DNA of 64,000 bases from a virus (taxonomy: Duplodnaviria; Heunggongvirae; Uroviricota; Caudoviricetes): the IMG/VR virus record IMGVR_UViG_3300043399_000700; one strand, given 5' to 3'. A program made the position numbers and the translations under genes. This document shows, in pieces, positions 3,309-63,805 of the stretch. The number at the start of each line of letters is the position of its first letter. Position 1 is the first letter of the stretch. The notes under the pieces are model-generated. The model was given only the letters and a program-made list of their open reading frames with translations. It was not told the origin of the DNA and did not search any database.

Positions 3309-3337
3309 TTGACCTAAAATTCGGATTTTGCTATAAT
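3309..3337 (+). promoter_or_regulatory. Early-type sigma70 promoter: TTGACC, 17-nt spacer, TTTGCTATAAT (extended -10)
   Basis: TTGACC 3309-3314 and TATAAT 3332-3337 with a 17-nt spacer. Same architecture as the three promoters at 32870-33443. Confidence 0.7.
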
Positions 3338-3366
3338 ACAAACTTAGCAAACTTCTGGAGATTAGC

Positions 3367-3897
3367 GTGGCATCACATTTAATGATTGATATTGAGGGTT
3401 TGGCCACAGGCCCAGATGCTACCATTTTAACTATTGCTGCCCAAAGTTTTGATCCGTTTGGTGCGGGTTATTTGGATCGTCATTACTACGGTCGGGTTAC
3501 GACCGAAAGCCAAGAGAACCGAGCGATTGACGAAGGCACAGTAGCTTGGTGGGCTACGCAGCCTGACGAAGCCCGCGAAGAAGCACTAGGCGACGGGCCC
3601 GATCGTGTACCGCTTAAACAAGCATTAGAAGATCTTTATAAAATTGCTTGGCAGCACGATTTTATTTGGGCACAAGGGCCAACATACGATTGTAATATTT
3701 TAGAACACGCATTTAAGTCGTATAATATGGTGCTGCCTTGGAAGTTTTATCGTGTACGTGATAGCAGAACTGTAATTAGTTTATGGCCTGACTGTCCAAA
3801 GCCTCCTACAACTCACCATGCACTCGAGGATGTGCGTAAGCAAATTGATTTGCTACAAAAGACATTAAATCATTTGGGTGTCACAGACATCAGATAA
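3367..3897 (+). CDS. dexA: DnaQ/DEDDh-family 3'-5' exonuclease (T4 DexA-like), GTG start
   Basis: N-terminal MIDIEGLATGPDATILTIAAQSFDP (Exo I-like; compare T4 DexA IIDFET...AVIAFDP). C-terminal HHALEDV (Exo III H-x4-D). Confidence 0.7.
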   Translation: MASHLMIDIEGLATGPDATILTIAAQSFDPFGAGYLDRHYYGRVTTESQENRAIDEGTVAWWATQPDEAREEALGDGPDRVPLKQALEDLYKIAWQHDFIWAQGPTYDCNILEHAFKSYNMVLPWKFYRVRDSRTVISLWPDCPKPPTTHHALEDVRKQIDLLQKTLNHLGVTDIR

Positions 3898-3922
3898 TTA
3901 CTGCACAACTCGGAGAAAACAT

Positions 3923-4582
3923 ATGATCATTGGAATTTGTGGTTTTATTGGTAGTGGTAAAGATACAATAGCGGATTACTTAACTACTGAACACGGATTC
4001 CGACGAGACAGTTTTGCAGCAACACTTAAAGATGCGATTTCAATGATCTTTGGTTGGGACCGTGATCTACTAGAAGGGCGCACAAAATACAGTCGTGAAT
4101 GGCGCGAACAGCGCGACGAATGGTGGAGCGAACGCCTAGGGCGAGAAATTACACCACGTTTGATGTTACAGTTATGGGGCACAGAAGTTTGCCGTCGCGG
4201 GTTTCATAATGATATTTGGGTAGCAAGTTTAGAAAACAAAGTTCGTCAATCCAAGGACGATGTTGTTATTAGTGATTGCCGCTTTCCTAATGAAATTCAA
4301 GCAATCCGCAATCAAGGCGGTATTGTTATTCGTGTTGTTCGCGGACCAGAACCCGAATGGTATAAATCAGCACTAGATTATAATGCTGGTTTACAACGTT
4401 GCGGATGGGCACTGGGCAAAGACGCACTTGAAAAAGCAGGTGTACATGCTAGTGAATATTCTTGGGTAGGAACCGACTTTGATTATGTACTAAATAACAA
4501 CGGTTCAGTTGATGACCTATATCGCCAGGTTAGCGATCTTCTTCAAGGTCTCCACGCCGCCAAGGTAAGTCGAGCCGCGTAA
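3923..4582 (+). CDS. Deoxynucleoside monophosphate kinase (T4 gp1-like P-loop kinase)
   Basis: MIIGICGFIGSGKDTIADYL P-loop is typical of phage dNMP kinases. GGAG lies 6 nt before the ATG at 3923. Confidence 0.7.
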   Translation: MIIGICGFIGSGKDTIADYLTTEHGFRRDSFAATLKDAISMIFGWDRDLLEGRTKYSREWREQRDEWWSERLGREITPRLMLQLWGTEVCRRGFHNDIWVASLENKVRQSKDDVVISDCRFPNEIQAIRNQGGIVIRVVRGPEPEWYKSALDYNAGLQRCGWALGKDALEKAGVHASEYSWVGTDFDYVLNNNGSVDDLYRQVSDLLQGLHAAKVSRAA

Positions 4583-24640: not shown

Positions 24641-25705
24641 ATGGCTAAACCATTTGACGTAAGCAAGTTTAGAAAAGAAATTACCAAGTCAATTGACGGA
24701 CTGTCGATTGGTTTTAACGATCCAACAGACTGGATCTCAACAGGCAACTATGCCCTTAACTATTTGATCAGCGGCGATTTTCACAAAGGTATTCCGTTGG
24801 GCAAGGTAACTGTATTTGCTGGAGACTCGGGTGCAGGTAAGTCTTATATCTGCTCAGGTAATATTGTTAAACATGCACAAGAACAAGGCATCTTTGTTGT
24901 GCTAATCGATACAGAAAACGCACTCGACGAAGATTGGCTAAAAGCACTAGGTGTTGATACCAGCGAAAGCAAATTGCTTAAACTGTCAATGGCAATGATC
25001 GATGACGTTGCAAAAACAATCTCAACATTTATGTCGGACTACAAAGCATTGCCCGAAGGCGAACGTCCTAAGGTTATGTTTGTTATCGACTCTCTAGGTA
25101 TGTTACTAACGCCCACAGATGTTAATCAATTTGACGCAGGTGAAATGAAGGGCGACTTAGGTCGTAAGCCTAAAGCACTAACAGCACTAGTTCGTAACTG
25201 TGTTAATATGTTTGGTTCGTATAACGTGGGCATGGTAGTTACCAACCACACATACGCATCGCAAGACATGTTTGATCCAGACGACAAGATCTCAGGCGGC
25301 CAAGGTTTTATCTACGCATCAAGTATTGTTGTTGCTATGAAGAAACTAAAACTCAAAGAAGATGAGGATGGTAACAAAGTATCGGACGTCATGGGTATTC
25401 GTGCAGCATGTAAAGTAATGAAAACACGTTATGCTAAACCGTTTGAAGGTGTGCAAGTTAAAATTCCATATGAAACAGGTATGAATCCTTACTCGGGTCT
25501 GACTGATCTTGCTGAAAAGAAAGGCCTACTCAAGAAGGACGGTAACCGATTGATGTTTATTACATCCGACGGTGAGATTATCAAGCAGTTCCGCAAGGCC
25601 TGGGAATCAAATGAAGATGGTTGCTTGGACAAGGTAATGGCTGATTTTAAAAATCAGAAAGAAACGGTAAGTACTGCTGAATCAGAATCAGAAACAGAGG
25701 AGTGA
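24641..25705 (+). CDS. uvsX: UvsX/RecA-family recombinase
   Basis: GKVTVFAGDSGAGKSYI Walker A in a RecA/UvsX-like context. 354 aa. Confidence 0.85.
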   Translation: MAKPFDVSKFRKEITKSIDGLSIGFNDPTDWISTGNYALNYLISGDFHKGIPLGKVTVFAGDSGAGKSYICSGNIVKHAQEQGIFVVLIDTENALDEDWLKALGVDTSESKLLKLSMAMIDDVAKTISTFMSDYKALPEGERPKVMFVIDSLGMLLTPTDVNQFDAGEMKGDLGRKPKALTALVRNCVNMFGSYNVGMVVTNHTYASQDMFDPDDKISGGQGFIYASSIVVAMKKLKLKEDEDGNKVSDVMGIRAACKVMKTRYAKPFEGVQVKIPYETGMNPYSGLTDLAEKKGLLKKDGNRLMFITSDGEIIKQFRKAWESNEDGCLDKVMADFKNQKETVSTAESESETEE

Positions 25706-25964: not shown

Positions 25965-26416
25965 TGTGGTATAGTCGAGTAGTAGCTAATATCGGTGCAA
26001 TTCCAGATTTTATTGCACACTATGAACACGAACTCAACGGCGCTAAAAATGAATGCCGTATTGGTGGGTTTGTAGAGCGTAATATCAAGGAATTGCCCGG
26101 TATCACCGAGCACAGATTTAATCAGCTTCAAGAGATTGAAGCTGTGCTCAATTATCTTAATATTCAATTGCGTAAGATACGCCGTAAGCATTTTCAAAAG
26201 TATCTTGAGAACTACGCACGAGCACTGACTAGCCGAGATGCTGAAAAGTATGTTGATGGCGAAGATGAAGTCATTGACTTTGAAACAATTATTAACGAAG
26301 TGGCATTGTTGCGCAATAAATGGCTAGGCATTATGAAGGGCCTTGATGCCAAACAATGGCAAATGGGACATATTGTTAGATTACGTACAGCAGGAATGGA
26401 AGATATACAAGTATGA
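25964..26416 (+). CDS. Hypothetical protein
   Basis: 150-aa ORF with a TAATG overlap. Confidence 0.45.
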   Translation: MWYSRVVANIGAIPDFIAHYEHELNGAKNECRIGGFVERNIKELPGITEHRFNQLQEIEAVLNYLNIQLRKIRRKHFQKYLENYARALTSRDAEKYVDGEDEVIDFETIINEVALLRNKWLGIMKGLDAKQWQMGHIVRLRTAGMEDIQV

Positions 26417-27435
26417 CGTATCGCATTGCATTCCATGAGGGAGTGCTGTGGTACTCTGCTTGGCTCGATATAAATTCTGGAATACTTAGGTCGCCTGGTA
26501 TTGGCGAAATAGTCATTAATGATCTAAGCAATGACAATATTAGTGTTAGCGATGTGTCTAATTATCGTTGGTTCGTTGATCTCAAACCCGAAGGAATCAG
26601 CGCAGAAGATTTAAAATACTTGCATGAGTTTCTAACATCGCATGGGTTAGATTCTAATAACTTTCGTGTGGCTTTTAGTTGTGTTGAAGATGTAACTAAA
26701 TTGCCATACCCTGCAATCACTATTACAAATAGACTAATCCACAACGGCAATTGGCTCGAAAATCTACAAGCTCAAAATATACATTGGCGAGAGTTGCCAA
26801 TGACTCATAAGTTTGTGTGTCTAATGCGTAGACCTAGTATCGGCCGCGCACATTTAACCAAAAGGCTACACGCTAATTTTGCCAAGGAAGATATGATTCT
26901 AACATTTGGTACCAGCGGCAGTCGCACAAGTCAAGAAATAGAAAATGTGGTAAAACCGCATTCAGTTCCGATTGTTGTTGACCAACCTGACGTTGATAGA
27001 GTAACTCAACATCGGATATCTCACGATTTGTTTTATCGTGCACCAGTAAACTTGATTGTTGAAAGTTCTAGTCAGATTGATCCTGGTGTATGGCGCAGCA
27101 TATTTGTAACAGAAAAGTCATTTAAAGCATTAGCATGGTATCAATTTCCATTATGGTATGCTGTACCGGGTCTGGTTGCTGAAGTTCGCCGACAAGGGTA
27201 CGATGTATTTGATGATTTGTTTGAAAATCATTATTACGACAGCATACAAGATCCGTGGGTGCGAATGACTCAAGTTATATTATTACTCAAACGGGTAGTT
27301 AAGCAAGACCTAAATGTTCTACGAGAACAACTATGGGATAGATTAGAATCTAATGCCACTCGAATTGTAAATGTACACCACGAAACCAAAATAACACACG
27401 GCAATATGATTAATGAGTTATTGGCTCGCGAATAA
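26413..27435 (+). CDS. Hypothetical protein
   Basis: 340-aa ORF with an ATGA overlap. Confidence 0.45.
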   Translation: MTYRIAFHEGVLWYSAWLDINSGILRSPGIGEIVINDLSNDNISVSDVSNYRWFVDLKPEGISAEDLKYLHEFLTSHGLDSNNFRVAFSCVEDVTKLPYPAITITNRLIHNGNWLENLQAQNIHWRELPMTHKFVCLMRRPSIGRAHLTKRLHANFAKEDMILTFGTSGSRTSQEIENVVKPHSVPIVVDQPDVDRVTQHRISHDLFYRAPVNLIVESSSQIDPGVWRSIFVTEKSFKALAWYQFPLWYAVPGLVAEVRRQGYDVFDDLFENHYYDSIQDPWVRMTQVILLLKRVVKQDLNVLREQLWDRLESNATRIVNVHHETKITHGNMINELLARE

Positions 27436-27456
27436 TGTACGTAGATAAATATCCGC

Positions 27457-28221
27457 ATGAAAAAGATTGTTTTAGTAACCGGCGGATTTGATCCGATACA
27501 CTCAGGCCATTTGGCACTACTTAAAGCAGCACGTGATTTAGGTGATATCCTAGTAGTAGGAGCCAACTCAGATGATTGGCTAACTCGTAAAAAGGGCGCA
27601 CCATTTATGCCATTGCGAGAACGTACGGCTGTACTTCGTGCACTTGCTGGTGTAGATTTTGTTATTGATTTTAATGATTCGGACGGCAGCGCCAAGCATG
27701 CTATTTGGATGGTACGTCAGAGCTACCCTCAAGACAAGATTATTTTTGCCAACGGTGGCGACCGCACCAACGAAAACATTCCAGAAATGGACGTTGTCGA
27801 TGACAACCTAGAATTTCATTTTGGTGTCGGCGGCTTTGCCAAAACAAATAGCTCATCTTGGATTCTTCAAGAATGGAAAGCACCTAAAACAGAGCGTCCA
27901 TGGGGCTACTATCGTGTCCTGCACAATTTACCGGGAATTAAAGTCAAAGAACTAACCATTGATCCGGGTCAGCGGTTAAGCATGCAAAAGCACCAACATC
28001 GTAACGAGTTATGGTTAGTGTCTGAAGGTAAGTGCATTGTTGACAAATGCATGGACAGTGGATATATGATGCCGGGCACATCGCTAGATACACACACAAC
28101 AATTAAAATTCCAGCAGGCGAATGGCACCAATTAATTAATCCCTACGACACACCTTGTAAGATTGTGGAAATACAGTACGGCACCGAGTGTGAAGAAGAT
28201 GATATCGAACGCCGCGAATAA
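27457..28221 (+). CDS. Sugar-phosphate nucleotidyltransferase (cytidylyltransferase-like HIGH motif) fused to a C-terminal cupin domain
   Basis: N-terminus MKKIVLVTGGFDPIHSGHLALLKAA (HxGH nucleotidyltransferase, RfaE-II/TagD-like). C-terminus ELWLVSEGKCIVD...IKIPAGEWHQLINP is a cupin beta-barrel signature. Confidence 0.65.
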   Translation: MKKIVLVTGGFDPIHSGHLALLKAARDLGDILVVGANSDDWLTRKKGAPFMPLRERTAVLRALAGVDFVIDFNDSDGSAKHAIWMVRQSYPQDKIIFANGGDRTNENIPEMDVVDDNLEFHFGVGGFAKTNSSSWILQEWKAPKTERPWGYYRVLHNLPGIKVKELTIDPGQRLSMQKHQHRNELWLVSEGKCIVDKCMDSGYMMPGTSLDTHTTIKIPAGEWHQLINPYDTPCKIVEIQYGTECEEDDIERRE

Positions 28222-28229
28222 GGGTATAA

Positions 28230-28985
28230 GTGAAAGCGTTTGTAATATACCTTAAAGGTAAAGAACACAGCGAACGTCAAGCACATCAAATGCTTGACCA
28301 ATTGCAAGAGTGGAACATTGATGCAAGTTTGTTTCCCGGAACGCAAGGGGATGACGCAAGTTCGATGGCAAATAAAGGAAAGAAAACACTTTATCCTTTT
28401 AGTATTAAAAGCAAGGAACTAACAGATCTTGATTTACAAAAGTATATCAAGCCTGAACTGTACGAAACGTTCATTCAAAACCATCATTATATTATACACG
28501 AGAGACATCGAATCTCCGACGAAGATGTTGGAAAAATGTCAAGACCTGGGGTCATTGGTTGTTTTTATAGCCATTACCGGTTATGGGAAAAGTGTACAGA
28601 ACTCGACGAACCGATAATGATCTTTGAAGATGACGTTAAGTTTTATCGAAATTACTTGCCTGTTGAGTTTGAGGATGTTCTGATATTATCGCTGGGTAAA
28701 AAATCATTTAAAAACGAACCTTATAAGACTTATTTAGAGTCGCCCTGTGCACCGCCTCAGGCAGTTCCGTGGAAAAATGCTAGCATGCCGGGCACATCGG
28801 GGTACGCAATTACACCTCGGGCTGCATCGGGATTAGTAAAAACTTATCGATATTATTGGTGCCCGTCGGACAATGCGATTAATCAGTTTGTATGTAAGAT
28901 ACAAATACATAATCATCTAATGGGAAGACACACATTGCCAAACGAAGGTAACATTTCAATGACTAAATCAAAGGATTGGGATTGA
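28230..28985 (+). CDS. Glycosyltransferase family 25-like protein (GTG start)
   Basis: MKAFVIYLKGKEHSERQAHQ resembles the GT25 N-terminus (MK-YVINL-R--DRR). Size is about 250 aa. Confidence 0.45.
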   Translation: MKAFVIYLKGKEHSERQAHQMLDQLQEWNIDASLFPGTQGDDASSMANKGKKTLYPFSIKSKELTDLDLQKYIKPELYETFIQNHHYIIHERHRISDEDVGKMSRPGVIGCFYSHYRLWEKCTELDEPIMIFEDDVKFYRNYLPVEFEDVLILSLGKKSFKNEPYKTYLESPCAPPQAVPWKNASMPGTSGYAITPRAASGLVKTYRYYWCPSDNAINQFVCKIQIHNHLMGRHTLPNEGNISMTKSKDWD

Positions 28986-29896
28986 TGAAGGTAGGGATTT
29001 TTTACAGCTCAATTAGTAATCCTGGAAAGTTTTCTAACAAAGTTATGTTAATGGATAACTTTGCCCGTGGAGTAAAAAAACACAACGACGAAGTAATAAA
29101 TTATAGCGACAACTCATTGCCTCAAAACAACTTAAATGTTGGATTTGTTTTAGGTTACACACTTGAAGATAATTTTCGTAAGAAGATCATTAATGCGTTA
29201 CGTGCATCCGAGACTCCACAAGTGTTTGTTGACAGTAATATTCTACACTATGCTCGTAAGGAACACGAGTGGCATCGTTACAGTTTAAATAGCGTATACC
29301 CCAACGATGGTGTTTATTTTTTTCGCGATTTAGACACAAACAAATGGGATCACTATAGTGCTTGGCATAACACTACAATGAAACCGTGGCGCAACGAAGG
29401 AAATCATATTGTGATATTTGCACAACGTCCTAAAGGATGGAACATGTTTGGTAATGACCAGGACAAATGGCTTAATCGTGCAATTGAAAAAATAATGACG
29501 ATCACAGATCGCCCTGTTGTTGTGCGTATGCACCCCGGCGATGGGGCTCGCCAAAAGCAAATAGATAAATTACAAAAAACGTTCGGCAATAAAATTTTAG
29601 TATCGGACAAAGATAATATTCGCGACGATCTTAAAAATTGCTGGGCAACAGTTGGATATAACTCAACACCCAATGTTGTTGCTGCTATCGAAGGTGTACC
29701 GTGTTATGTTGAAGATCCTGTCCACAGTTGGGCAGCAGATGTTGCATTTACAGATTTAAAAAAATTAGTAAATCCGCCTTTGGTGGACAGAGAATCTTGG
29801 ATTCATAAAATCGCAAACATCCATTGGTCCAACGAAGAAGTTAGGCGTGGCGATCTTTGGGAAGCAATCAAGTACTATATTTCTTCTTCTCGTTAA
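28985..29896 (+). CDS. Putative glycosyltransferase, paralog 1 (TDRP-VVR-HP motif family)
   Basis: Shares AQ...W...I..I..TDRP(V/I)VVR.HP, NS.P.V.AAIE and (E/Q)W..(I/T)....(V/T)...E(V/I)RRG blocks with the ORF at 30787. ATGA overlap with the upstream gene. Confidence 0.45.
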   Translation: MKVGIFYSSISNPGKFSNKVMLMDNFARGVKKHNDEVINYSDNSLPQNNLNVGFVLGYTLEDNFRKKIINALRASETPQVFVDSNILHYARKEHEWHRYSLNSVYPNDGVYFFRDLDTNKWDHYSAWHNTTMKPWRNEGNHIVIFAQRPKGWNMFGNDQDKWLNRAIEKIMTITDRPVVVRMHPGDGARQKQIDKLQKTFGNKILVSDKDNIRDDLKNCWATVGYNSTPNVVAAIEGVPCYVEDPVHSWAADVAFTDLKKLVNPPLVDRESWIHKIANIHWSNEEVRRGDLWEAIKYYISSSR

Positions 29897-30686
29897 GAAA
29901 CAATTCGTGATCTTTACGAGTACCTTTGGCTGTCCATATAAAGCTATCGGGTTTCATATTCCAGTCAATGAAGTTCTCTGAAAGTTGATGCCAGTTGTAT
30001 TTAGGTACTGATTGTTCTAATAAATCTTGATCTAATCCCCAGTATATGTAATTGGAAACAAACTTTGATCGCAAAGAATTTGCGTAAGTTTGTATAAACA
30101 TATTAGCAGCAGCACCGGGATTTAGGTATAGTCCCCCAGCCATAAAACGAGCACGTTTCCCTTCGACTCGGTGTATGTAAAAATCGCAATTGTTTTCTAA
30201 ATTATGCCATCGACGTCGAACTACCGCATCAACGTCGATAGCAAATGCACCTTGACTTTGGTACATTTCTGCTAGCCTAAAAAATCTAGCACAGGCAAAA
30301 TATGTTTTTTGCAATCTATGTAAAAGATTTTTGTCATTGCCTTTGCCCATTGCATTATGTGTACGTTCGTATTCTGACTTTGCTGGTTCTTTGGTAGGCA
30401 CTTCAATAAATCTATCTGCTGCACGATCAAACTGTTCAGCCGCAATTATTTCCCAACTAACTGACACATTCAATTTTTCGCATAGCTCTAATTGTTTAGA
30501 TAATGGATTGAAGATATGTATGTGTAACGGTAAGTCAGTATTGCGTTTGATACTGTTAATCAATGGCGGCGCAAATTCATCAAAGTAGTCTGAATCACAT
30601 GCGGTGTATATAAAAAACTCTTCTGGAGGTTTATTTCCTTGCACTTCGGATATAATCATGGTTAAATATTTAGTGATTAAAAGCAT
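29868..30686 (-). CDS. Putative GT-A-like glycosyltransferase (antisense within the cluster)
   Basis: 272 aa. FIYTACDSDYFDEF resembles an acidic-rich nucleotide-sugar binding (DxD-like) segment. The only minus-strand gene in this block. Confidence 0.35.
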   Translation of the reverse strand: MLLITKYLTMIISEVQGNKPPEEFFIYTACDSDYFDEFAPPLINSIKRNTDLPLHIHIFNPLSKQLELCEKLNVSVSWEIIAAEQFDRAADRFIEVPTKEPAKSEYERTHNAMGKGNDKNLLHRLQKTYFACARFFRLAEMYQSQGAFAIDVDAVVRRRWHNLENNCDFYIHRVEGKRARFMAGGLYLNPGAAANMFIQTYANSLRSKFVSNYIYWGLDQDLLEQSVPKYNWHQLSENFIDWNMKPDSFIWTAKGTRKDHELFLNEKKKYST

Positions 30687-30786
30687 AGCATACTTTCCTT
30701 CTTCTTGCGCAAGAAACTCTACAGAGCCATTGGATTCCTTTTTAGACAGTTGTCGGGGATTTGGTATTCAAACCCAAGAAAATTCA

Positions 30787-31530
30787 ATGGACGCAGACGC
30801 AGCAGTTATTTGGTCTGTGTTATGGCACGGCAGATTAAAGCCTAACCAAGCAGTTTACGAACATTACCGTAGCCAAAATAAGCCTGTAGTTGTTATGGAC
30901 GTTGGTGCACTATATCGTGGGCGAACCTGGAAGATTGCAGTTAATAATATAAATGCATTAGGCTATTATGGTCACCAAACAAATTTAGATTACGACCGCC
31001 CTCGTAAATTAAGACTGTCGATGGCTACACAAATTGGTCGCGGTAGCTCTATACTTGTTGCTGCTCAACATAGAAACAGTTTACAAACTCAATGTTTAAC
31101 CAGCATTGAGGATTGGATCACACAAAACATAAATGAAATTAAAAAATACACCGACCGCCCTATTGTAGTAAGGCCGCACCCTCGATCGCCTTTAAATTCA
31201 AACTTTGTTCCAAAGTTTGCTTTTATCGAAAAGCCGGAACAAATACGTGGTACTTACGATAATTTTGACTTGCGCTTTGACTATCATGCTGTAATAAATT
31301 ACAACAGCGGACCTGGCGTACAAGCAGCCATTGAAGATTGTCCTACTATAGTTGATAATTCGAGCTTGGCATATCCGGTAAGCATTAAAATGAATCAGAT
31401 TGAAAATCCGCCCAAAGTGGATAGAGAGCAGTGGTTTGTAGAAATAACACATACTGAATACACAGTTGACGAGATACGCAGAGGATCATGGATAAACAGA
31501 TTAGAACCAGCATTGACTGTGCCTGCGTAA
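30787..31530 (+). CDS. Putative glycosyltransferase, paralog 2 (TDRP-VVR-HP motif family)
   Basis: Paralog of the ORF at 28985. The track start at 30604 overlaps the antisense gene; ATG 30787 (MDADAAV) is preferred. Confidence 0.45.
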   Translation: MDADAAVIWSVLWHGRLKPNQAVYEHYRSQNKPVVVMDVGALYRGRTWKIAVNNINALGYYGHQTNLDYDRPRKLRLSMATQIGRGSSILVAAQHRNSLQTQCLTSIEDWITQNINEIKKYTDRPIVVRPHPRSPLNSNFVPKFAFIEKPEQIRGTYDNFDLRFDYHAVINYNSGPGVQAAIEDCPTIVDNSSLAYPVSIKMNQIENPPKVDREQWFVEITHTEYTVDEIRRGSWINRLEPALTVPA

Positions 31531-32213
31531 TACACGACACTTTATATTCTTGGGAGTATGTTGAAAAATTGCATCGTGGTTTGCAACGTAATTTAAGCAT
31601 ACCTGTGCGATTGCATGTTTACACCGAAGAACAACGGAGCGTTCCTGATTCAATGACAAAGCATGTACTCGACGAATGGTCTGGCATTCGAGGTCCTAAA
31701 CGTAGTTGGTGGTACAAACTACAACTTTTTAACACTGGTAAATTTGCAGGCGATTTGCTTTATTTTGATTTAGACACAGTGATCACAGGAAACATTGACT
31801 GGATCTGGCAATTGCCTACAGAGCATTTTTGGGCACTAAAAGATTTTCAATACTTGTATAGAAAAAATCTTACTAAGATTAACTCGAGCGTGATGTGGTT
31901 CAATAATACACGCTGGCAAAACATATACAATAACATTAATCTAGACAAACTTAAAACAGCTAGTAAGCACTACGGTGATCAAGACTACATTTTTGAAAAT
32001 GTGCCTTTGCATAATATACGTTACCTAGCTCAGCATCGTGTTAATAGTTGGCGATGGCAAGCGCACGACGGCGGCTGGGATTTTGCTGGTAAAAAGCCCG
32101 TTGCACCTGGGTTGGGAACAAAACTTGATCCTGACGTAAGCATATTAGTATTCCATGGTAGCCCAAAACCACATGAAATTCACGATAAATTAGTGAACAA
32201 ACACTGGCTCTAG
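31488..32213 (+). CDS. GT8-like (DxD) nucleotide-diphospho-sugar glycosyltransferase
   Basis: WWYKLQLFN...GDLLYFDLDTVITGNIDWIWQ resembles the GT8 'K..L.......D..LYLD.D.iv' block. GAGGA ribosome-binding site before the ATG at 31488. Confidence 0.5.
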   Translation: MDKQIRTSIDCACVIHDTLYSWEYVEKLHRGLQRNLSIPVRLHVYTEEQRSVPDSMTKHVLDEWSGIRGPKRSWWYKLQLFNTGKFAGDLLYFDLDTVITGNIDWIWQLPTEHFWALKDFQYLYRKNLTKINSSVMWFNNTRWQNIYNNINLDKLKTASKHYGDQDYIFENVPLHNIRYLAQHRVNSWRWQAHDGGWDFAGKKPVAPGLGTKLDPDVSILVFHGSPKPHEIHDKLVNKHWL

Positions 32214-32221
32214 TATAAATA
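32214..32221 (+). promoter_or_regulatory. T4-late-promoter-like TATAAATA box
   Basis: Exact TATAAATA octamer in the gap upstream of the structural-like ORF at 32336, but 115 nt from the ATG. Confidence 0.25.
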
Positions 32222-32335
32222 TCTATAGAAGATTGTGGTCGCAGTTACAATCAATTAAATCTAATTCCGGGTTGTGCTACATTTTTTGATGGCTTGCCTT
32301 ATACTGTGAATTTAATATTTTGAGGAAAAAATATC

Positions 32336-32830
32336 ATGGCAAAAATGACAAGAAAATTGCAATTTACAGGTAGTGTAATGAGCTCACCTGCTGCTGCAAC
32401 AGTTTTGTTAAATGGTGTTGAACTTTATAGCGGTCAAATTGGCGTAGGACAACCTATTGATGTCCCTGGCGTAGAACTATTTGTCCTAGAATATCAAGGT
32501 GAAGAGACCGTTGAAGAGACCGTTGCTGTAACTATTTCGATTACTTCTGGCGTGGCTAAAATTGCCACCACACAAACAGAAGTTCAAGGAGAAGGCGGTA
32601 CCGGTGTTGAGTGGGCACTACCTTGGGGCAACGGCAACGACGGCCGTACACAAATCCTAATCAATGGCTTGCCTCCAGAGTGGCCTCCAACACCTGTTAC
32701 TCCAATGCCCGGCGGCACACCAGAAAATCCAGACTGGTCGGGTTGGGCATTTGATGTTTCGGCAGGCGAAACTATAACTTTTGAATATTTGGTTTTACCA
32801 TATATGAGAGTTCCTACTGTTACAGAATAA
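32336..32830 (+). CDS. Hypothetical (probably virion) protein
   Basis: 164-aa ORF followed by a strong terminator. Confidence 0.5.
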   Translation: MAKMTRKLQFTGSVMSSPAAATVLLNGVELYSGQIGVGQPIDVPGVELFVLEYQGEETVEETVAVTISITSGVAKIATTQTEVQGEGGTGVEWALPWGNGNDGRTQILINGLPPEWPPTPVTPMPGGTPENPDWSGWAFDVSAGETITFEYLVLPYMRVPTVTE

Positions 32831-32837
32831 TAGTAAC

Positions 32838-32867
32838 AAAACCCCGCCCAAAGCGGGGTTTTTTATT
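32838..32867 (+). terminator. Rho-independent terminator (CCCCGC-CCAAA-GCGGGG then TTTTTTATT)
   Basis: Perfect 6-bp GC stem and T-run. It directly abuts the next promoter and shares the GGTTTTTTATTGG tail with the terminator at 52098. Confidence 0.8.
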
Positions 32868-32869
32868 GG

Positions 32870-32898
32870 TTGACCAATAATTACCATTTTGCTATAAT
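32870..32898 (+). promoter_or_regulatory. Early promoter copy 1: TTGACC, 17-nt spacer, TTTGCTATAAT
   Basis: TTGACC 32870-32875 and TATAAT 32893-32898 with extended -10 TG. Confidence 0.8.
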
Positions 32899-33087: not shown

Positions 33088-33198
33088 ATGAATACAATAT
33101 ATTGGATATTATCGGGTCTTAGTATATTGTGTATTATAGGGTTAATTGCCGAATCTATTGCTATAATACGTGAGCACAACAAGACCAAACAAGGTTGA
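33088..33198 (+). CDS. Tiny early membrane ORF (36 aa, single transmembrane segment)
   Basis: MNTIYWILSGLSILCIIGLIAESIAIIREHNKTKQG. Its TGA stop overlaps the next -35 box (GGTTGACCAG). Confidence 0.4.
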   Translation: MNTIYWILSGLSILCIIGLIAESIAIIREHNKTKQG

Positions 33199-33223
33199 CC
33201 AGAAATAGCCATTTTGCTATAAT
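33195..33223 (+). promoter_or_regulatory. Early promoter copy 2: TTGACC, 17-nt spacer, TTTGCTATAAT
   Basis: TTGACC 33195-33200 and TATAAT 33218-33223. Confidence 0.8.
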
Positions 33224-33253: not shown

Positions 33254-33418
33254 ATGAATCAAAGAAATTTAAATCAAGCAATGGATTTGCTTTGGGATCT
33301 TTGGCACGAACTACCCAACGATCACCCTGACTTCGACGAGCTAGATTCTTCATTTGAAGCAGCCTGGAATAACCTACAGCATGTCAACAATACTTTGGAT
33401 TGGAATGGCAACGGTTGA
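33254..33418 (+). CDS. Small early acidic protein (54 aa)
   Basis: AGGAG before the ATG at 33254. MNQRNLNQAMDLLWDLWHELPNDHPDFDELDSSFEAAWNNLQHVNNTLDWNGNG. Its stop again sits in GGTTGACCAG. Confidence 0.5.
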   Translation: MNQRNLNQAMDLLWDLWHELPNDHPDFDELDSSFEAAWNNLQHVNNTLDWNGNG

Positions 33419-33443
33419 CCAGTAATTCTGACTTTGCTATAAT
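33415..33443 (+). promoter_or_regulatory. Early promoter copy 3: TTGACC, 17-nt spacer, CTTTGCTATAAT
   Basis: TTGACC 33415-33420 and TATAAT 33438-33443. Confidence 0.8.
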
Positions 33444-60353: not shown

Positions 60354-62663
60354 ATGACACAAATATTAATTACCAAGCGTGGTGGACGCAAGGAGCCGCT
60401 TGATTTAGAAAAATTGCACAAAGTAGTATTTTGGGCCACTGAAGGAATAACTGGTGTAAGTGCAAGCCAAGTAGAAATTAAAAGCCATATTCAGTTTTAC
60501 CCAGGAATTACCACAGCAGACATTCAAGAAACATTGATCAAAAGTGCTGCTGATTTAATTTCAGAAGAAACACCGAATTATCAGTATGTTGCTGGACGAC
60601 TAGTAACATATCATTTACGCAAACAAGTCTATGGTAAGTTTCAACCTTGCCACATCTTAGAACTTGTTAAGAAAAATGTTGCAGCAGGTTTTTACGACAA
60701 GGAATTGCTAGAAGCATATTCAGAAGATGAGTGGGATCGCATTAACAGTTTTATTCGCCACGATCGTGACGAACAATTAACTTATGCTGCTATGGAACAG
60801 TTCCGCGGCAAGTACCTAGTACAAAACCGTGTGACCAAAGAAATCTTTGAAACACCGCAGGTTGCTTATGCGCTAATTGCTGCTACCTTATTCCAAAGTT
60901 ATCCACGTGAATCACGCATGATGTGGGTACGTGATTATTACGATGCTGTAAGCACACATCAGATCTCATTACCGACTCCAGTTATGGCAGGTGTGCGCAC
61001 ACCACAGCGTCAATTTAGTTCTTGTGTGTTAATTGAAACAGACGATAGCCTAGATTCAATTAATGCCACTGCTGCCAGCATTGTAAAATATGTTAGTCAG
61101 AAAGCAGGCATCGGCCTAGGCGCTGGACGTATTCGCGCACTAGGATCACCAATTCGCAACGGCGATGCTTATCACACAGGTGTAGTTCCTTTTTACAAGT
61201 TGTTCCAAGCCGCTACACGTAGTTGTTCACAAGGCGGTGTGCGCAATGGCGCTGCTACATTGTATTTCCCATTATGGCACTATGAAATTGAAGACCTAAT
61301 GGTTCTAAAGAACAACAAGGGCACCGAAGACAATCGTGTACGCCACATGGACTATGGTGTGCAGTTCAATAAACTAATGTATGAACGCTTACTAACCGGC
61401 GGCGACATTACACTATTCAGCCCACATGATGTTCCTGAAATGTACGAAGCATTTTTTGCTGATCAAGATCGTTTTAAAGAACTTTACGAAAAGGCAGAAA
61501 AGAACTCTAAGTTACGTAAGAAAACTGTCAAGGCCATTGACTTGTTCTCAGCATTTATGCAAGAGCGCAAAGACACAGGCCGCATTTACTTACAAAACGT
61601 TGACCATGCCAACACACACGGTTCGTTCAAGCCCGAAGTTGCACCAATCAAGCAGTCAAATCTTTGCTGCGAAATCGACTTGCCAACCAAGCCGCTAAAC
61701 GATATTCACGATGTTGAGGGCGAAATTGCTTTATGTACTCTAAGTGCCATTAACTGGGGTGTGTTCAAAGATCCTGAGGACATGGAAAAAGCATGTATCC
61801 TTGCAGTACGTGGTTTAGACGAACTACTAACATATCAAAGTTATCCTATCCTAGCAGCAGAGATTGCCACACGCAATCGCCGTCCGTTGGGCGTTGGTAT
61901 TATTAATTTTGCCTACTGGTTAGCCAAGAATGATCTGAGTTATAGTGATCCAGCAGCCTTAGAAGTCACAGACCGTTGGGCACAACACTGGTCATACTAC
62001 CTAATCAAAGCATCAGCAGACCTGGCCCGAGAAAAGGGCAAGTGCCCATTAAACGAACAAACCAAGTATGGTGATGGTATTCTTCCTGTAGACACATACA
62101 AGCGCGAAGTTGATGAACTTGTACCACACTCCGATGTAGTTGACTGGGTAGGACTACGTGAGCAACTAAAGGCCACAGGCATTCGCAACTCAACACTAAT
62201 GGCTCTAATGCCAGCAGAAACTTCGGCGCAGATCTCAAACTCAACTAATGGTGTTGAGCCGCCGCGCAGTTATGTTTCAATTAAGCAGTCTAAGGACGGC
62301 GTGCTCAAGCAAGTTGTTCCTGAGTTCCGTAAACTAAAGAACAAGTACGAACTACTGTGGAATCAAAAGTCACCTGAAGGTTATTTAAAACTAATGGCAA
62401 TCTTACAAAAGTACGTGGACCAAGGTATTTCGGTTAACACCAGTTACAACCCACAGTTCTTTGAAGATGAAAAGATTCCAATGAGTGAAATGCTCAAGCA
62501 CATGATTATGTTTTATAAGTATGGCGGCAAACAACTTTATTACTTTAATACCTATGATGGTTCGGGTGAATTAGATGTTGATCGCCTCGCAGGTAAAACA
62601 GTATTAGTTGAGTCTGTTCAACAACCAATTGAAGACGATGACTGCGAAAGTTGTAAAATCTAA
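60354..62663 (+). CDS. nrdA: Ribonucleoside-diphosphate reductase alpha subunit (class Ia NrdA)
   Basis: N-terminal ATP-cone-like segment. Active-site block SNLCCEI, a C-terminal CESCKI Cys pair and a Tyr-Tyr in YYFNTYD. 769 aa. Confidence 0.9.
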   Translation: MTQILITKRGGRKEPLDLEKLHKVVFWATEGITGVSASQVEIKSHIQFYPGITTADIQETLIKSAADLISEETPNYQYVAGRLVTYHLRKQVYGKFQPCHILELVKKNVAAGFYDKELLEAYSEDEWDRINSFIRHDRDEQLTYAAMEQFRGKYLVQNRVTKEIFETPQVAYALIAATLFQSYPRESRMMWVRDYYDAVSTHQISLPTPVMAGVRTPQRQFSSCVLIETDDSLDSINATAASIVKYVSQKAGIGLGAGRIRALGSPIRNGDAYHTGVVPFYKLFQAATRSCSQGGVRNGAATLYFPLWHYEIEDLMVLKNNKGTEDNRVRHMDYGVQFNKLMYERLLTGGDITLFSPHDVPEMYEAFFADQDRFKELYEKAEKNSKLRKKTVKAIDLFSAFMQERKDTGRIYLQNVDHANTHGSFKPEVAPIKQSNLCCEIDLPTKPLNDIHDVEGEIALCTLSAINWGVFKDPEDMEKACILAVRGLDELLTYQSYPILAAEIATRNRRPLGVGIINFAYWLAKNDLSYSDPAALEVTDRWAQHWSYYLIKASADLAREKGKCPLNEQTKYGDGILPVDTYKREVDELVPHSDVVDWVGLREQLKATGIRNSTLMALMPAETSAQISNSTNGVEPPRSYVSIKQSKDGVLKQVVPEFRKLKNKYELLWNQKSPEGYLKLMAILQKYVDQGISVNTSYNPQFFEDEKIPMSEMLKHMIMFYKYGGKQLYYFNTYDGSGELDVDRLAGKTVLVESVQQPIEDDDCESCKI

Positions 62664-62677
62664 CTATTGAGAAAACA

Positions 62678-63805
62678 ATGAGCGTTTTAAATTTAAAAAA
62701 GAATCGTGATCACACAAAAGCCACTGCCTTCCTGGATAAAGAAGGCAGCGTTGGCATGCAACGTTATGAAACAATGAAGTACAAGCAGTTTGACAAACTA
62801 ACTGACAAACAACTTGGCTTTTTTTGGCGTCCTGAGGAAGTTGATCTTGGACACGATAGCAAAGACTTTAAAGACCTAACACCGTACGAACAACATATCT
62901 TTACGTCAAACCTCAAGCGTCAAATTTTGTTAGACTCTGTGCAAGGTCGTAGTCCCAACCTAGCTTTTCTTCCAATGGTATCGCTACCTGAACTAGAAAC
63001 ATGGATTGAAACTTGGGCGTTTAACGAAACTATCCACAGTCGCAGTTACACACATATCATTCGTAACGTTTATCCTGACCCATCGAAGATCTTCGACGAA
63101 ATGTTAGACGTTGAGGAAATCGTTAATTGTGCACGTGACATTACCAAGTACTACGATGACTTAATCGAGTACTATGATTTTTATAAAGTATTAGGCCCCG
63201 GTAATCACACAGTCAATGGCAAGAATATCAGTATCAGTGAATACGATCTCAAGCGTAGACTATGGATGGCTGTTAACTCTGTAAACGCACTTGAAGGCAT
63301 TCGCTTTTACGTTTCGTTTGCTTGTTCATGGGCTTTTGCTGAACTCAAGAAGATGGAAGGCAACGCTAAGATTATTAAACTAATCTGCCGCGACGAAAAC
63401 CTACACTTAGCATTCACACAAAGTCTAATTAAGATCCTACCCAAGGATGATCCAGACTTTGCAAAAATTCAAGAAGAAACACGCAGCGAGTGTGCTGCTA
63501 TGTTTGAAGCAGCAGTTGAACAAGAAAAGGCCTGGGCACATTATTTGTTCAAAGATGGGTCAATGATCGGTCTTAACGAGCAATTGCTTTGCGACTATAT
63601 TGAATGGATCGCTCATAAGCGTATGAACGCAATAAGCCTGCCACACAAGTACAAAGGCGGTTCGGATCCGTTACCTTGGGCTGCAAAATGGATTGCTGGT
63701 GCAGAAGTACAAGTTGCACCACAAGAAACGGAAATTTCGTCTTATATCATTGGTGGCACCAAGCAAGACGTAGATTCAAACACATTCTCTGGACTAAGTT
63801 TATAA
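62678..63805 (+). CDS. nrdB: Ribonucleoside-diphosphate reductase beta subunit (NrdB)
   Basis: Di-iron ligand blocks NETIHSRSY and CRDENLH. 375 aa immediately after nrdA. Confidence 0.9.
   Translation: MSVLNLKKNRDHTKATAFLDKEGSVGMQRYETMKYKQFDKLTDKQLGFFWRPEEVDLGHDSKDFKDLTPYEQHIFTSNLKRQILLDSVQGRSPNLAFLPMVSLPELETWIETWAFNETIHSRSYTHIIRNVYPDPSKIFDEMLDVEEIVNCARDITKYYDDLIEYYDFYKVLGPGNHTVNGKNISISEYDLKRRLWMAVNSVNALEGIRFYVSFACSWAFAELKKMEGNAKIIKLICRDENLHLAFTQSLIKILPKDDPDFAKIQEETRSECAAMFEAAVEQEKAWAHYLFKDGSMIGLNEQLLCDYIEWIAHKRMNAISLPHKYKGGSDPLPWAAKWIAGAEVQVAPQETEISSYIIGGTKQDVDSNTFSGLSL

Follow-up and report, generated by a model that had tools for sequence, protein, structure and literature searches.

A hypervariable gene island beside uvsX in an aquatic jumbo-phage lineage, a candidate glycan-assembly system with KpsS/KpsC-like proteins that lack the nucleophile aspartate

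Results and Discussion

A hypervariable island at a fixed site

The 64,000-nucleotide stretch of DNA analysed here (IMG/VR record IMGVR_UViG_3300043399_000700, referred to below as the window) belongs to an uncultured jumbo myovirus that has replication genes of the T4 type, and almost all its genes lie on the plus strand. Next to its uvsX gene we found an island of eight open reading frames (ORF1 to ORF8, Table 1) that encodes two proteins related to the capsule transferases KpsS and KpsC together with a nucleotidyltransferase-cupin fusion and three candidate glycosyltransferases of the GT-A type. Our tentative reading is that this is a hypervariable glycan-assembly island, and that it would build a short acidic hetero-oligosaccharide on an acceptor other than DNA, most likely a virion protein.

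A scan of IMG/VR yielded 80 related loci, and in 44 of them the island was complete, with both flanks present. The site is the same in all 44: uvsX, an 84-amino-acid gene and a 150-amino-acid gene lie on one side, and genes for an AAA ATPase and a DEAD-type helicase on the other. Between these flanks the complete islands display 35 gene orders, with 6 to 15 genes in 5.2-12.5 kb. The KpsS/KpsC-like family represented by ORF4 and ORF6 is the only universal component, present in 44/44 in one to five copies, usually as two copies that flank the antisense gene ORF5, and this universal presence fits an essential catalytic step. A GT8-like gene of 228 amino acids, the usual place of which in the relatives is after the nucleotidyltransferase-cupin gene (ORF2), was found in 43 complete islands and is absent from the window. 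The GT25 gene (ORF3) was present in 33 of the 44, ORF5 in 32, the nucleotidyltransferase-cupin fusion in 30 and ORF7 in 29. As accessory genes, the relatives carry those for four kinds of S-adenosylmethionine (SAM) methyltransferase (including FkbM), GT2 and GT7-like transferases, a GDP-mannose 4,6-dehydratase (7e-119), an RmlD-like reductase, a radical SAM protein and a protein weakly matching a pyruvyl-transferase. Every island gene is conserved in tens of related contigs, and the median identity of ORF4 across relatives equals that of the flanking AAA ATPase (66% in both cases). Clusters of glycosyltransferase genes are familiar from phages, but hypervariability of an O-antigen-like kind, at a fixed site and in a jumbo-phage lineage widespread in aquatic habitats, appears to be new.

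KpsS/KpsC-like proteins without the nucleophile

ORF4 and ORF6 are paralogous from end to end, N-terminal domain included (BLASTP, 7e-18). Searches with Pfam, NCBIfam and PHROG models and against PDB sequences matched neither of them, and the capsule synthesis model PF05159 (Capsule_synth) gave no match to them at E <= 0.1. The family is nevertheless large: clustering at 90% identity produced 856 homologous clusters for ORF4 and 4302 for ORF6, and at 50% identity there are 3640 representatives, 1872 of which lie below 1e-10. When the AlphaFold model of ORF4 (pLDDT 84.8, pTM 0.83) was compared with the PDB by Foldseek, the top 26 hits were exclusively retaining beta-Kdo transferases. The fold comparison gave values of 15.2 for KpsC 2,4, 13.8 for WbbB, 13.7 for KpsC 2,7 and 13.3 for KrkA, against 10.0 for the best ordinary GT-B protein and 8.6 for TagF, and the alignments extended over about 230 residues with the four beta-Kdo transferases versus about 160 with ordinary GT-B proteins. 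The T4 beta-glucosyltransferase (beta-GT) was not among the top 50-60 fold hits of the GT-B-like proteins.

To relate these proteins to KpsS and KpsC residue by residue, a profile of 52 diverse family members was aligned by hhalign with the E. coli CFT073 sequences; a shallower family profile failed against the N-terminal module of KpsC (KpsC-N). The deep profile matched KpsS with a probability of 85% (E 5.9e-6), the C-terminal KpsC module with an E value of 3.7e-4 and KpsC-N with one of 3.6e-3. The three alignments concur in placing ORF4 Q147 on the Gln in QXXXD, and R181-x-H183-P184 on the (K/R)xHP motif (KHHP in KpsS). In addition, N226-S227 of ORF4 (N211-S212 in ORF6) corresponds to the NS pair of KpsS, and D83, a position occupied by D or E throughout the aligned sequences, coincides with Glu66 of KpsC-N, in an alignment with a probability of 9%. 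The Gln is invariant (Q132 in ORF6), and so is RxHP in 46 sequences (R181-M-H183-P184 in ORF4, R167-P-H169-P170 in ORF6), with a conservation of at least 90% in the 52 diverse representatives. In all, the two paralog families, about 20% identical to each other, have 15 invariant columns in common. In contrast, the Asp of QXXXD is replaced by Gly in ORF4 (G151, QRPKG) and in the family consensus, and by Ser in ORF6 (QHRNS).

In beta-Kdo transferases, this Asp is the absolutely conserved covalent nucleophile, the Gln of the same motif binds the Kdo carboxylate, and the HP pair binds cytidine monophosphate (CMP), as it does in CMP-sialic-acid enzymes (PMC10148158, PMC12887879). KpsS and KpsC (family GT107), WbbB (GT99) and KrkA (GT140) share with ORF4 and ORF6 the (K/R)xHP motif, the Gln, the NS pair and possibly an acidic residue at the Glu66 position. 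The spacing is also similar, with 36 residues between Gln and His versus 38 in KrkA, and 44 between His and Ser, equal to KrkA (PMC12887879). They differ in that the beta-Kdo transferases keep the Asp, and in that the phage-encoded proteins are single modules of about 300 residues that occur in tandem sets of one to five. Judging from these motifs, ORF4 and ORF6 appear to be KpsS/KpsC homologues in which the machinery for binding a CMP-linked acid sugar as donor is retained. Since the nucleophile is lost, canonical double displacement would be impossible, and this places them outside GT99, GT107 and GT140; they probably use a CMP-linked ulosonic acid by some other mechanism. Because the Asp is absent while the putative acidic base position (D83) is kept, we infer that transfer probably proceeds by direct (inverting) displacement, without a covalent enzyme adduct, and a displaced nucleophile or a lost activity could also account for the sequences. 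A search of the literature found no paper on KpsS/KpsC-like phage proteins devoid of the nucleophile, and the family is likely to represent a new glycosyltransferase family.

The same substitution could mean that ORF4 and ORF6 are not ulosonic-acid transferases at all, but non-catalytic scaffolds or CMP sensors, or else TagF-like CDP-alcohol phosphotransferases that would use a CDP-linked product of ORF2 and release CMP. The N-terminal domain of ORF2 does match glycerol-3-phosphate and ethanolamine-phosphate cytidylyltransferases, and the CMP bound by RxHP is also the leaving group of CDP-alcohol donors. However, purifying selection is strong, and among the 15 invariant columns is the Gln with which Kdo transferases bind the carboxylate of the sugar (PMC12887879). 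With the universal occurrence of the family in complete islands also speaking for a catalytic step, we consider these functions very unlikely.

Among cultured phages, the family is found in three settings. In Caulobacter jumbo phages its place is behind the tail-fibre genes, next to an annotated sialyltransferase and a methyltransferase, and in CcrPW it comes directly after the tail and tail-fibre genes. It is accompanied by glycosyltransferases, methyltransferases and a sulfotransferase in Pelagibacter phage Mosig, and by a TibC-like glycosyltransferase, terminase and portal genes in a freshwater podovirus. In bacteria, a profile scan of 185,579 species genomes detected it in only two loci (L090 and L091), both in metagenome-assembled genomes. 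L090, on a 148-kb contig assigned to Haliscomenobacter, displays the phage order UvsX, nucleotidyltransferase-cupin, GT8 and AAA, and this gene order identifies it as a phage contig binned with Bacteroidota; the binning is a weak hint of a host in that phylum. L091 comes from a Lishizhenia genome.

A nucleotidyltransferase-cupin fusion with a proposed role in sugar activation

Residues 1-140 of ORF2 form a HIGH-superfamily nucleotidyltransferase domain, with the HxGH motif as H15-S-G-H18. It matched PF01467 (2.1e-13, 51.1 bits for a cut-off of 21) and phrog_7878 (1e-27), and its relatives in the PDB are ECT, HldC and TagD. The best NCBIfam model was TIGR02199 (rfaE_dom_II, 9e-22), for which the 77.5 bits obtained stay below the trusted cut-off of 181.5, so that ORF2 does not qualify as an HldE domain II equivalog; similarly, the TagD model TIGR01518 gave 39.5 bits for a cut-off of 165.4. 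Residues 144-254 correspond to the cupin of type II phosphomannose isomerases and ManC (PF01050, 5.8e-23, 81.7 bits for a cut-off of 23.6). The cupin motifs are intact, namely RPWG at 147-150, H179-x-H181..E184 and P219-x-G-x-x-H224-x-x-x-N228, with the metal ligands His/His/Glu/His. The C-terminal part of TIGR01479 (GMP_PMI) was matched with 5e-21 and 75 bits, far from the 373 that define a full ManC equivalog.

This architecture resembles that of the bifunctional enzymes ManC/AlgA, which also combine an isomerase and a nucleotidyltransferase in one chain and have the same C-terminal cupin (MannoseP_isomer) with its metal ligands, but ORF2 has a HIGH-superfamily domain in place of the GT-A-like NTP_transferase domain of ManC. 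The N-terminal domain shares HxGH with HldE domain II and HldC, and ORF2 lacks the kinase domain of HldE. The fusion appears to be a new architecture for making activated manno-type sugars.

Three candidate GT-A type transferases

ORF3 matched the GT25 model PF01755 (1.5e-19, 71 bits for a cut-off of 24) over profile positions 3-197 of 199 and carries E133-D-D. Its residues 106-205, the GT25 core, also match phrog_61, a cyanophage family of 689 positions annotated as 2-oxoglutarate-Fe(II) oxygenase, as well as individual cyanophage proteins with that annotation. This match suggests that cyanophages may encode hydroxylase-GT25 fusions reminiscent of the collagen lysyl hydroxylase/glycosyltransferase; collagen-like repeats that could be a GT25 target were not found in the window.

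ORF5 had no match in Pfam, NCBIfam or PHROG, and sequence and profile searches of the PDB were also negative. Its AlphaFold model (pLDDT 93.7), however, matched LARGE1, UGGT, LgtC, glycogenin and the Skp1 alpha-galactosyltransferase (alpha-GalT) in Foldseek, with values from 1e-7 to 1e-6. The DxD motif (D142-V-D144) is invariant in the family, which comprises 442 homologous clusters; 5 of 37 members examined match PF03407 and 2 of 37 PF01501, although ORF5 of the window matches neither. From the model, ORF5 is predicted to be a retaining-type GT-A enzyme of the GT8/GT24/GT77 kind. The gene is antisense to its neighbours in all 53 loci that carry it.

ORF7 matched phrog_1962, annotated as glycosyltransferase (3.3e-21), and its DxD motif (D94-L-D96) is invariant as DLD in 18 homologues. 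Sequence and profile searches of the PDB gave nothing direct, and the GT8/GT77 signals were weak; in one of them, the region around the DxD aligned at profile level with the GT77 enzyme Skp1 alpha-GalT (E 0.036). By tblastn, ORF7 matched Pelagibacter phage Mosig, Xanthomonas and Stenotrophomonas jumbo phages, and PmgQ of P1 and HdmD of P7. These P1 and P7 homologues are annotated as having a putative morphogenetic function.

Proposed pathway and acceptor

In the pathway that we propose, ORF2 would supply an activated manno-configured sugar. Its cupin would convert a ketose-6-phosphate into the aldose (fructose-6-phosphate into mannose-6-phosphate, or a heptose analogue) and its HIGH-type domain would turn a sugar-1-phosphate into a nucleoside diphosphate (NDP)-sugar, with host enzymes providing the mutase or kinase steps. 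The three GT-A enzymes, one GT25 (a normally inverting family) and two DxD proteins of the retaining GT8/GT77 kind, would add hexoses from NDP-sugars, and ORF4 and ORF6 would bind a CMP-linked 2-keto-3-deoxy acid sugar, for example host CMP-Kdo or a nonulosonic acid, through RxHP and the Gln. In the relatives, the product would also be O-methylated and contain a 6-deoxyhexose. None of the eight products has membrane segments and all are soluble, so that assembly would be cytoplasmic, with the glycan built stepwise and placed most likely on a virion protein, as in chloroviruses and mycobacteriophages. The gene content, folds, motifs, paralogy, fixed site and hypervariability are observed; we infer the donor sugars, the mechanism and the order of action, and the acceptor is a guess.

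A virion or other protein as acceptor is plausible rather than probable. The tail-gene context in Caulobacter phages and the analogy with giant viruses and mycobacteriophages favour a virion protein, although this evidence is thin. The systems that glycosylate the chlorovirus capsid, the mimivirus fibrils and the mycobacteriophage capsid and tail likewise rely on soluble GT-A enzymes, methyltransferases and GDP-mannose dehydratase/reductase, without membrane machinery, and their gene content varies among clades as that of the island does. They differ in that KpsS/KpsC-like enzymes are not known there and in that the island lies outside the structural gene block. Several other points weigh against our proposal. 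Nothing in the sequence points to a glycoprotein acceptor, and the acceptors of KpsS and KpsC themselves are lipid-linked. Catalysis could also have gone with the Asp. HIGH-family nucleotidyltransferases are known to use ATP or CTP and not GTP, which makes the link between ORF2 and the GDP-mannose branch of the relatives indirect, and the lack of the GT8-like gene in the window means that its product may differ from that of the relatives. Finally, the island is placed among replication and recombination genes and not among structural ones, where T4 and RB69 keep their DNA-sugar genes (PMC13326640).

This last point leads to phage DNA as the acceptor, where the island would write an oligosaccharide on a hydroxylated pyrimidine, a first glycosyltransferase acting on the base and the others extending it, in order to evade restriction and modification-dependent nucleases; a restriction arms race would then explain the hypervariability. 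The initial annotation had left the target between modified bases of phage DNA and the host surface, and the DNA precedents are real. Phage clusters are known that attach Kdo, heptose or uronic acids, and chains as long as trisaccharides, to 5-hydroxymethylcytosine, one of them requiring a cytidylyltransferase-like enzyme (bioRxiv 10.1101/2023.12.21.572611), the arabinosyl- and poly-arabinosyl-5-hydroxycytosine clusters of RB69 and DLP3 combine a sugar-phosphate isomerase, a nucleotidyltransferase and several glycosyltransferases (PMC13326640), and YerA41 carries about 1 kDa on T (PMC9023294). The island shares with the hypermodification clusters (T4 alpha/beta-GT and gp42, RB69/DLP3, and the 5mYOX-linked ones of Pyle et al.) the set of several glycosyltransferases plus isomerase/nucleotidyltransferase supply genes, a uvsX-adjacent site in a T4-type replication block (in T4, beta-gt and gene 42 adjoin uvsX) and a high diversity among related phages, and both Kdo and heptose are known DNA appendages. 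Moreover, the deoxynucleotide kinase that the initial annotation expected outside the window lies inside it, as a T4 gp1-like deoxynucleotide monophosphate (dNMP) kinase gene (Table 1).

The enzyme that would prepare the base is what we did not find. A hydroxymethylase beyond the window had been regarded as decisive, and tblastn searches with T4 gp42, td, cd and frd gave no match, hence no ThyA/gp42-like gene, in 3.08 Mb of lineage DNA (the window and, for 240 related loci, the 10 kb to either side of the island, of NrdB and of the dNMP kinase); T4 alpha-gt and beta-gt as queries had no hits either. Pfam domains of the Thymidylat_synt, TET/JBP or C5-methylase type were likewise absent from the 64-kb window and from the annotated relative. 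In these searches, which covered 5mYOX through Pfam on the window, the island differs from DNA clusters in having no ThyA homologue, 5mYOX or C5-methylase nearby. Known DNA-modification pathways usually cluster with a base-hydroxylating enzyme. The folds differ as well, since known DNA glycosyltransferases are T4 beta-GT-like or GT4-like GT-B proteins or JGT-like GT-A proteins, whereas those of ORF4 and ORF6 are of the KpsC type, and the O-methyltransferases, dehydratase (Gmd) and reductase of the relatives, which imply methylated and 6-deoxy sugars, have no precedent on DNA.

A further observation concerned short palindromes. In the window, AGCT occurs 83 times versus 244 expected (0.34), the lowest ratio of the 256 tetramers, and seven related loci (L010, L026, L048, L067, L077, L081 and L083) each avoid a different palindrome, for instance TGCA with 2 occurrences versus 82 expected in L081; others avoided in related contigs are CGCG (0.16-0.33, several contigs), GCGC (0.30) and AATT (0.45). 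This looks like a member-specific avoidance of restriction sites and would speak against modified DNA. However, T4, used as a control, also avoids GATC (0.30), so that palindrome avoidance does not discriminate as a proxy for unmodified DNA and we give it little weight. On balance, a DNA target is unlikely and a non-DNA glycan seems the likelier one. In a bolder variant, which is decidedly unlikely, phage DNA would receive an ulosonic acid from its CMP-linked form through the KpsS/KpsC-like proteins, in that case DNA glycosyltransferases of a new class, and the GT-A enzymes would extend it into an acidic oligosaccharide, with a base hydroxylase unrelated to ThyA or TET encoded elsewhere in the genome of about 350 kb.

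The host envelope is the other candidate. A KpsS/KpsC-like pair would start a glycolipid on a membrane lipid or on the lipid A-core, on the membrane's inner face, the GT-A enzymes would extend it and host exporters would display it; if so, receptor masking would lead to superinfection exclusion or to a smaller loss of progeny on debris. The nearest relatives of every transferase (KpsS/KpsC, WbbB, GT25 and the GT8 enzyme LgtC) act on lipopolysaccharide, lipooligosaccharide or capsule glycolipids, the best profile match was to KpsS, which acts on phosphatidylglycerol (PMC12887879), the nucleotidyltransferase of ORF2 is nearest to the ADP-heptose enzyme HldE domain II, and the hypervariability resembles that of O-antigen loci. 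Against this, no flippase, ligase, transporter or membrane-anchored protein was found in 125 island gene clusters. Besides, the phage proteins known to convert serotypes are located in the membrane and belong to temperate phages, and here we deal with a jumbo phage of the lytic type. At such similarity, moreover, the family is nearly absent from bacteria, one of its two loci having a phage context. We therefore regard envelope remodelling as rather unlikely, and keep the glycosylation of a virion protein as our working proposal.

Extent and layout of the island

The initial annotation had delimited a module of seven consecutive genes at 27457-32213. The block is real, and all genes named in it exist on the strands and nearly at the coordinates given, but there are six of them in that interval, as also in its own list; an independent gene call on an identical 5.4-kb contig agrees with this layout. 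By comparison with the 80 related contigs, the functional unit is wider, extends from 26413 to 32830 and includes ORF1 and ORF8, with a strong terminator closing it (Table 1). The start of the second paralog (ORF6) had been set at 30787, which cuts 38 conserved residues. Homologues of 280-285 amino acids span 99% of the reading from 30673 and have the N-terminus MIKSIAYFP in common, and on these grounds the true start is the GTG at that position. The assignments themselves were borne out by the searches described above: the nucleotidyltransferase-cupin fusion and the GT25-like gene by Pfam (2e-13 and 6e-23 for the two domains of the former), the two paralogs by BLASTP, the DxD transferase and the antisense GT-A gene by their DxD motifs together with phrog_1962 and the ORF5 fold, respectively, and the resemblance of the His-Pro block to KpsC/KpsS by fold searches and profile alignment. 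The suggestion of an enzyme set that produces an NDP-sugar and then transfers it repeatedly is a fair one. As regards the target, the absence of detectable ThyA, TET/JBP and C5-methylase in the DNA searched and the KpsC-like GT-B fold count against its DNA branch.

Table 1. Position of the island genes and of other features in the window
Feature	Position	Strand	Product length	Description
T4 gp1-like dNMP kinase	3878-4582			PF21448, 1.7e-14
UvsX	24641-25705			Island flank
ORF1	26413-27435	+	340 aa	Between the conserved 150-aa flank gene and ORF2
ORF2	27457-28221	+	254 aa	HIGH nucleotidyltransferase and type II phosphomannose isomerase cupin fusion
ORF3	28230-28985	+	251 aa	GT25-family GT-A; stop codon overlaps ORF4 start by 1 nt
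ORF4	28985-29896	+	303 aa	KpsS/KpsC-like modified GT-B protein
ORF5	29868-30659	-	263 aa	Predicted retaining-type GT-A, antisense
ORF6	30673-31530	+	285 aa	ORF4 paralog, GTG start
ORF7	31488-32213	+	241 aa	DxD GT-A-like transferase; overlaps ORF6 by 43 nt
ORF8	32336-32830	+	164 aa	Acidic (pI 4.1), Pro/Thr-rich stretch; inside the terminator-bounded unit
Terminator-like hairpin	32838-32862	both		Bidirectional, intrinsic type, closes the island; 10-11 bp stem, 6 G-C pairs, T runs flanking both strands
Promoter-like site 1	32870-32898			TTGACC, 17 nt, TATAAT
Promoter-like site 2	33195-33223			Identical to site 1
Promoter-like site 3	33415-33443			Identical to site 1
Radical SAM protein	47923-49092			One of two
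Class I ribonucleotide reductase	60354-63805			

ORF5 converges with ORF4, which it overlaps by 29 nt, and diverges from ORF6, the two starts being 13 nt apart. After the terminator there are three identical promoter-like sites with an upstream TG, each preceding a small ORF or the AAA ATPase gene (33478). Inside the island no comparable promoter was found, and for this reason ORF1 to ORF8 resemble the last part of the uvsX transcription unit, with one antisense gene in addition. The two outer genes are the least conspicuous. ORF1, kept at 50-55% identity in 8 related loci and found in 6 of the 44 complete islands, matched no family or structure in Pfam, NCBIfam, PHROG or sequence and profile searches of the PDB; no search supported a GT10-like reading of its 'ESS...TEK' motif. 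ORF8 is present in 7 related loci, mostly ones that also carry ORF1, and had no family or phage match in Pfam, NCBIfam or PHROG.

Genomic setting

In a Pfam overview, the products of the window included terminase, tail sheath, gp32, a DnaB-type helicase and NrdAB, besides the T4 gp1-like dNMP kinase. UvsX is 64-68% identical to its counterparts in Sinorhizobium phage Phosso, Agrobacterium phage Atu_ph07, Vibrio phage 2.275.O and the GAP32/CBB group, and the 'moraphage' lineage (PMC12619734) is different from that of the window. Megablast of the island DNA against 50,697 phage records gave no matches, and exact copies of ORF4 and ORF5 are known from a 192-kb JGI contig. A look-up of identical proteins, meant to reach past the window, gave only contigs of 4.7-5.4 kb.

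Other features of the region were also noted. Several genes of the homing-endonuclease type (NUMOD3, HNH, TnsA-like) are scattered over the first 25 kb, one of them at 536-1216. The part from about 39000 to 64000 contains genes for a NifU-like and two IscA-like iron-sulphur assembly proteins and for two radical SAM proteins, and in related islands a radical SAM gene of 420 amino acids adjoins uvsX. Just past the 3' end of the window, a short contig with an identical NrdB (L087) carries genes for a glutaredoxin and a PAAR-motif protein after NrdB (3334-4209 of that contig).

Implications

The family of ORF4 and ORF6 is very large, unannotated and essentially phage-specific, and is linked to the mechanistically unusual beta-Kdo transferases, so that it could show how a double-displacement scaffold switches mechanism. 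The island as a whole would be the marker of an unrecognised arms race, analogous to the bacterial O-antigen locus. Identification of the acceptor would reveal one of three things: virion glycosylation in jumbo phages of Gram-negative bacteria, a new DNA glycan, or a phage-directed remodelling of the host envelope.

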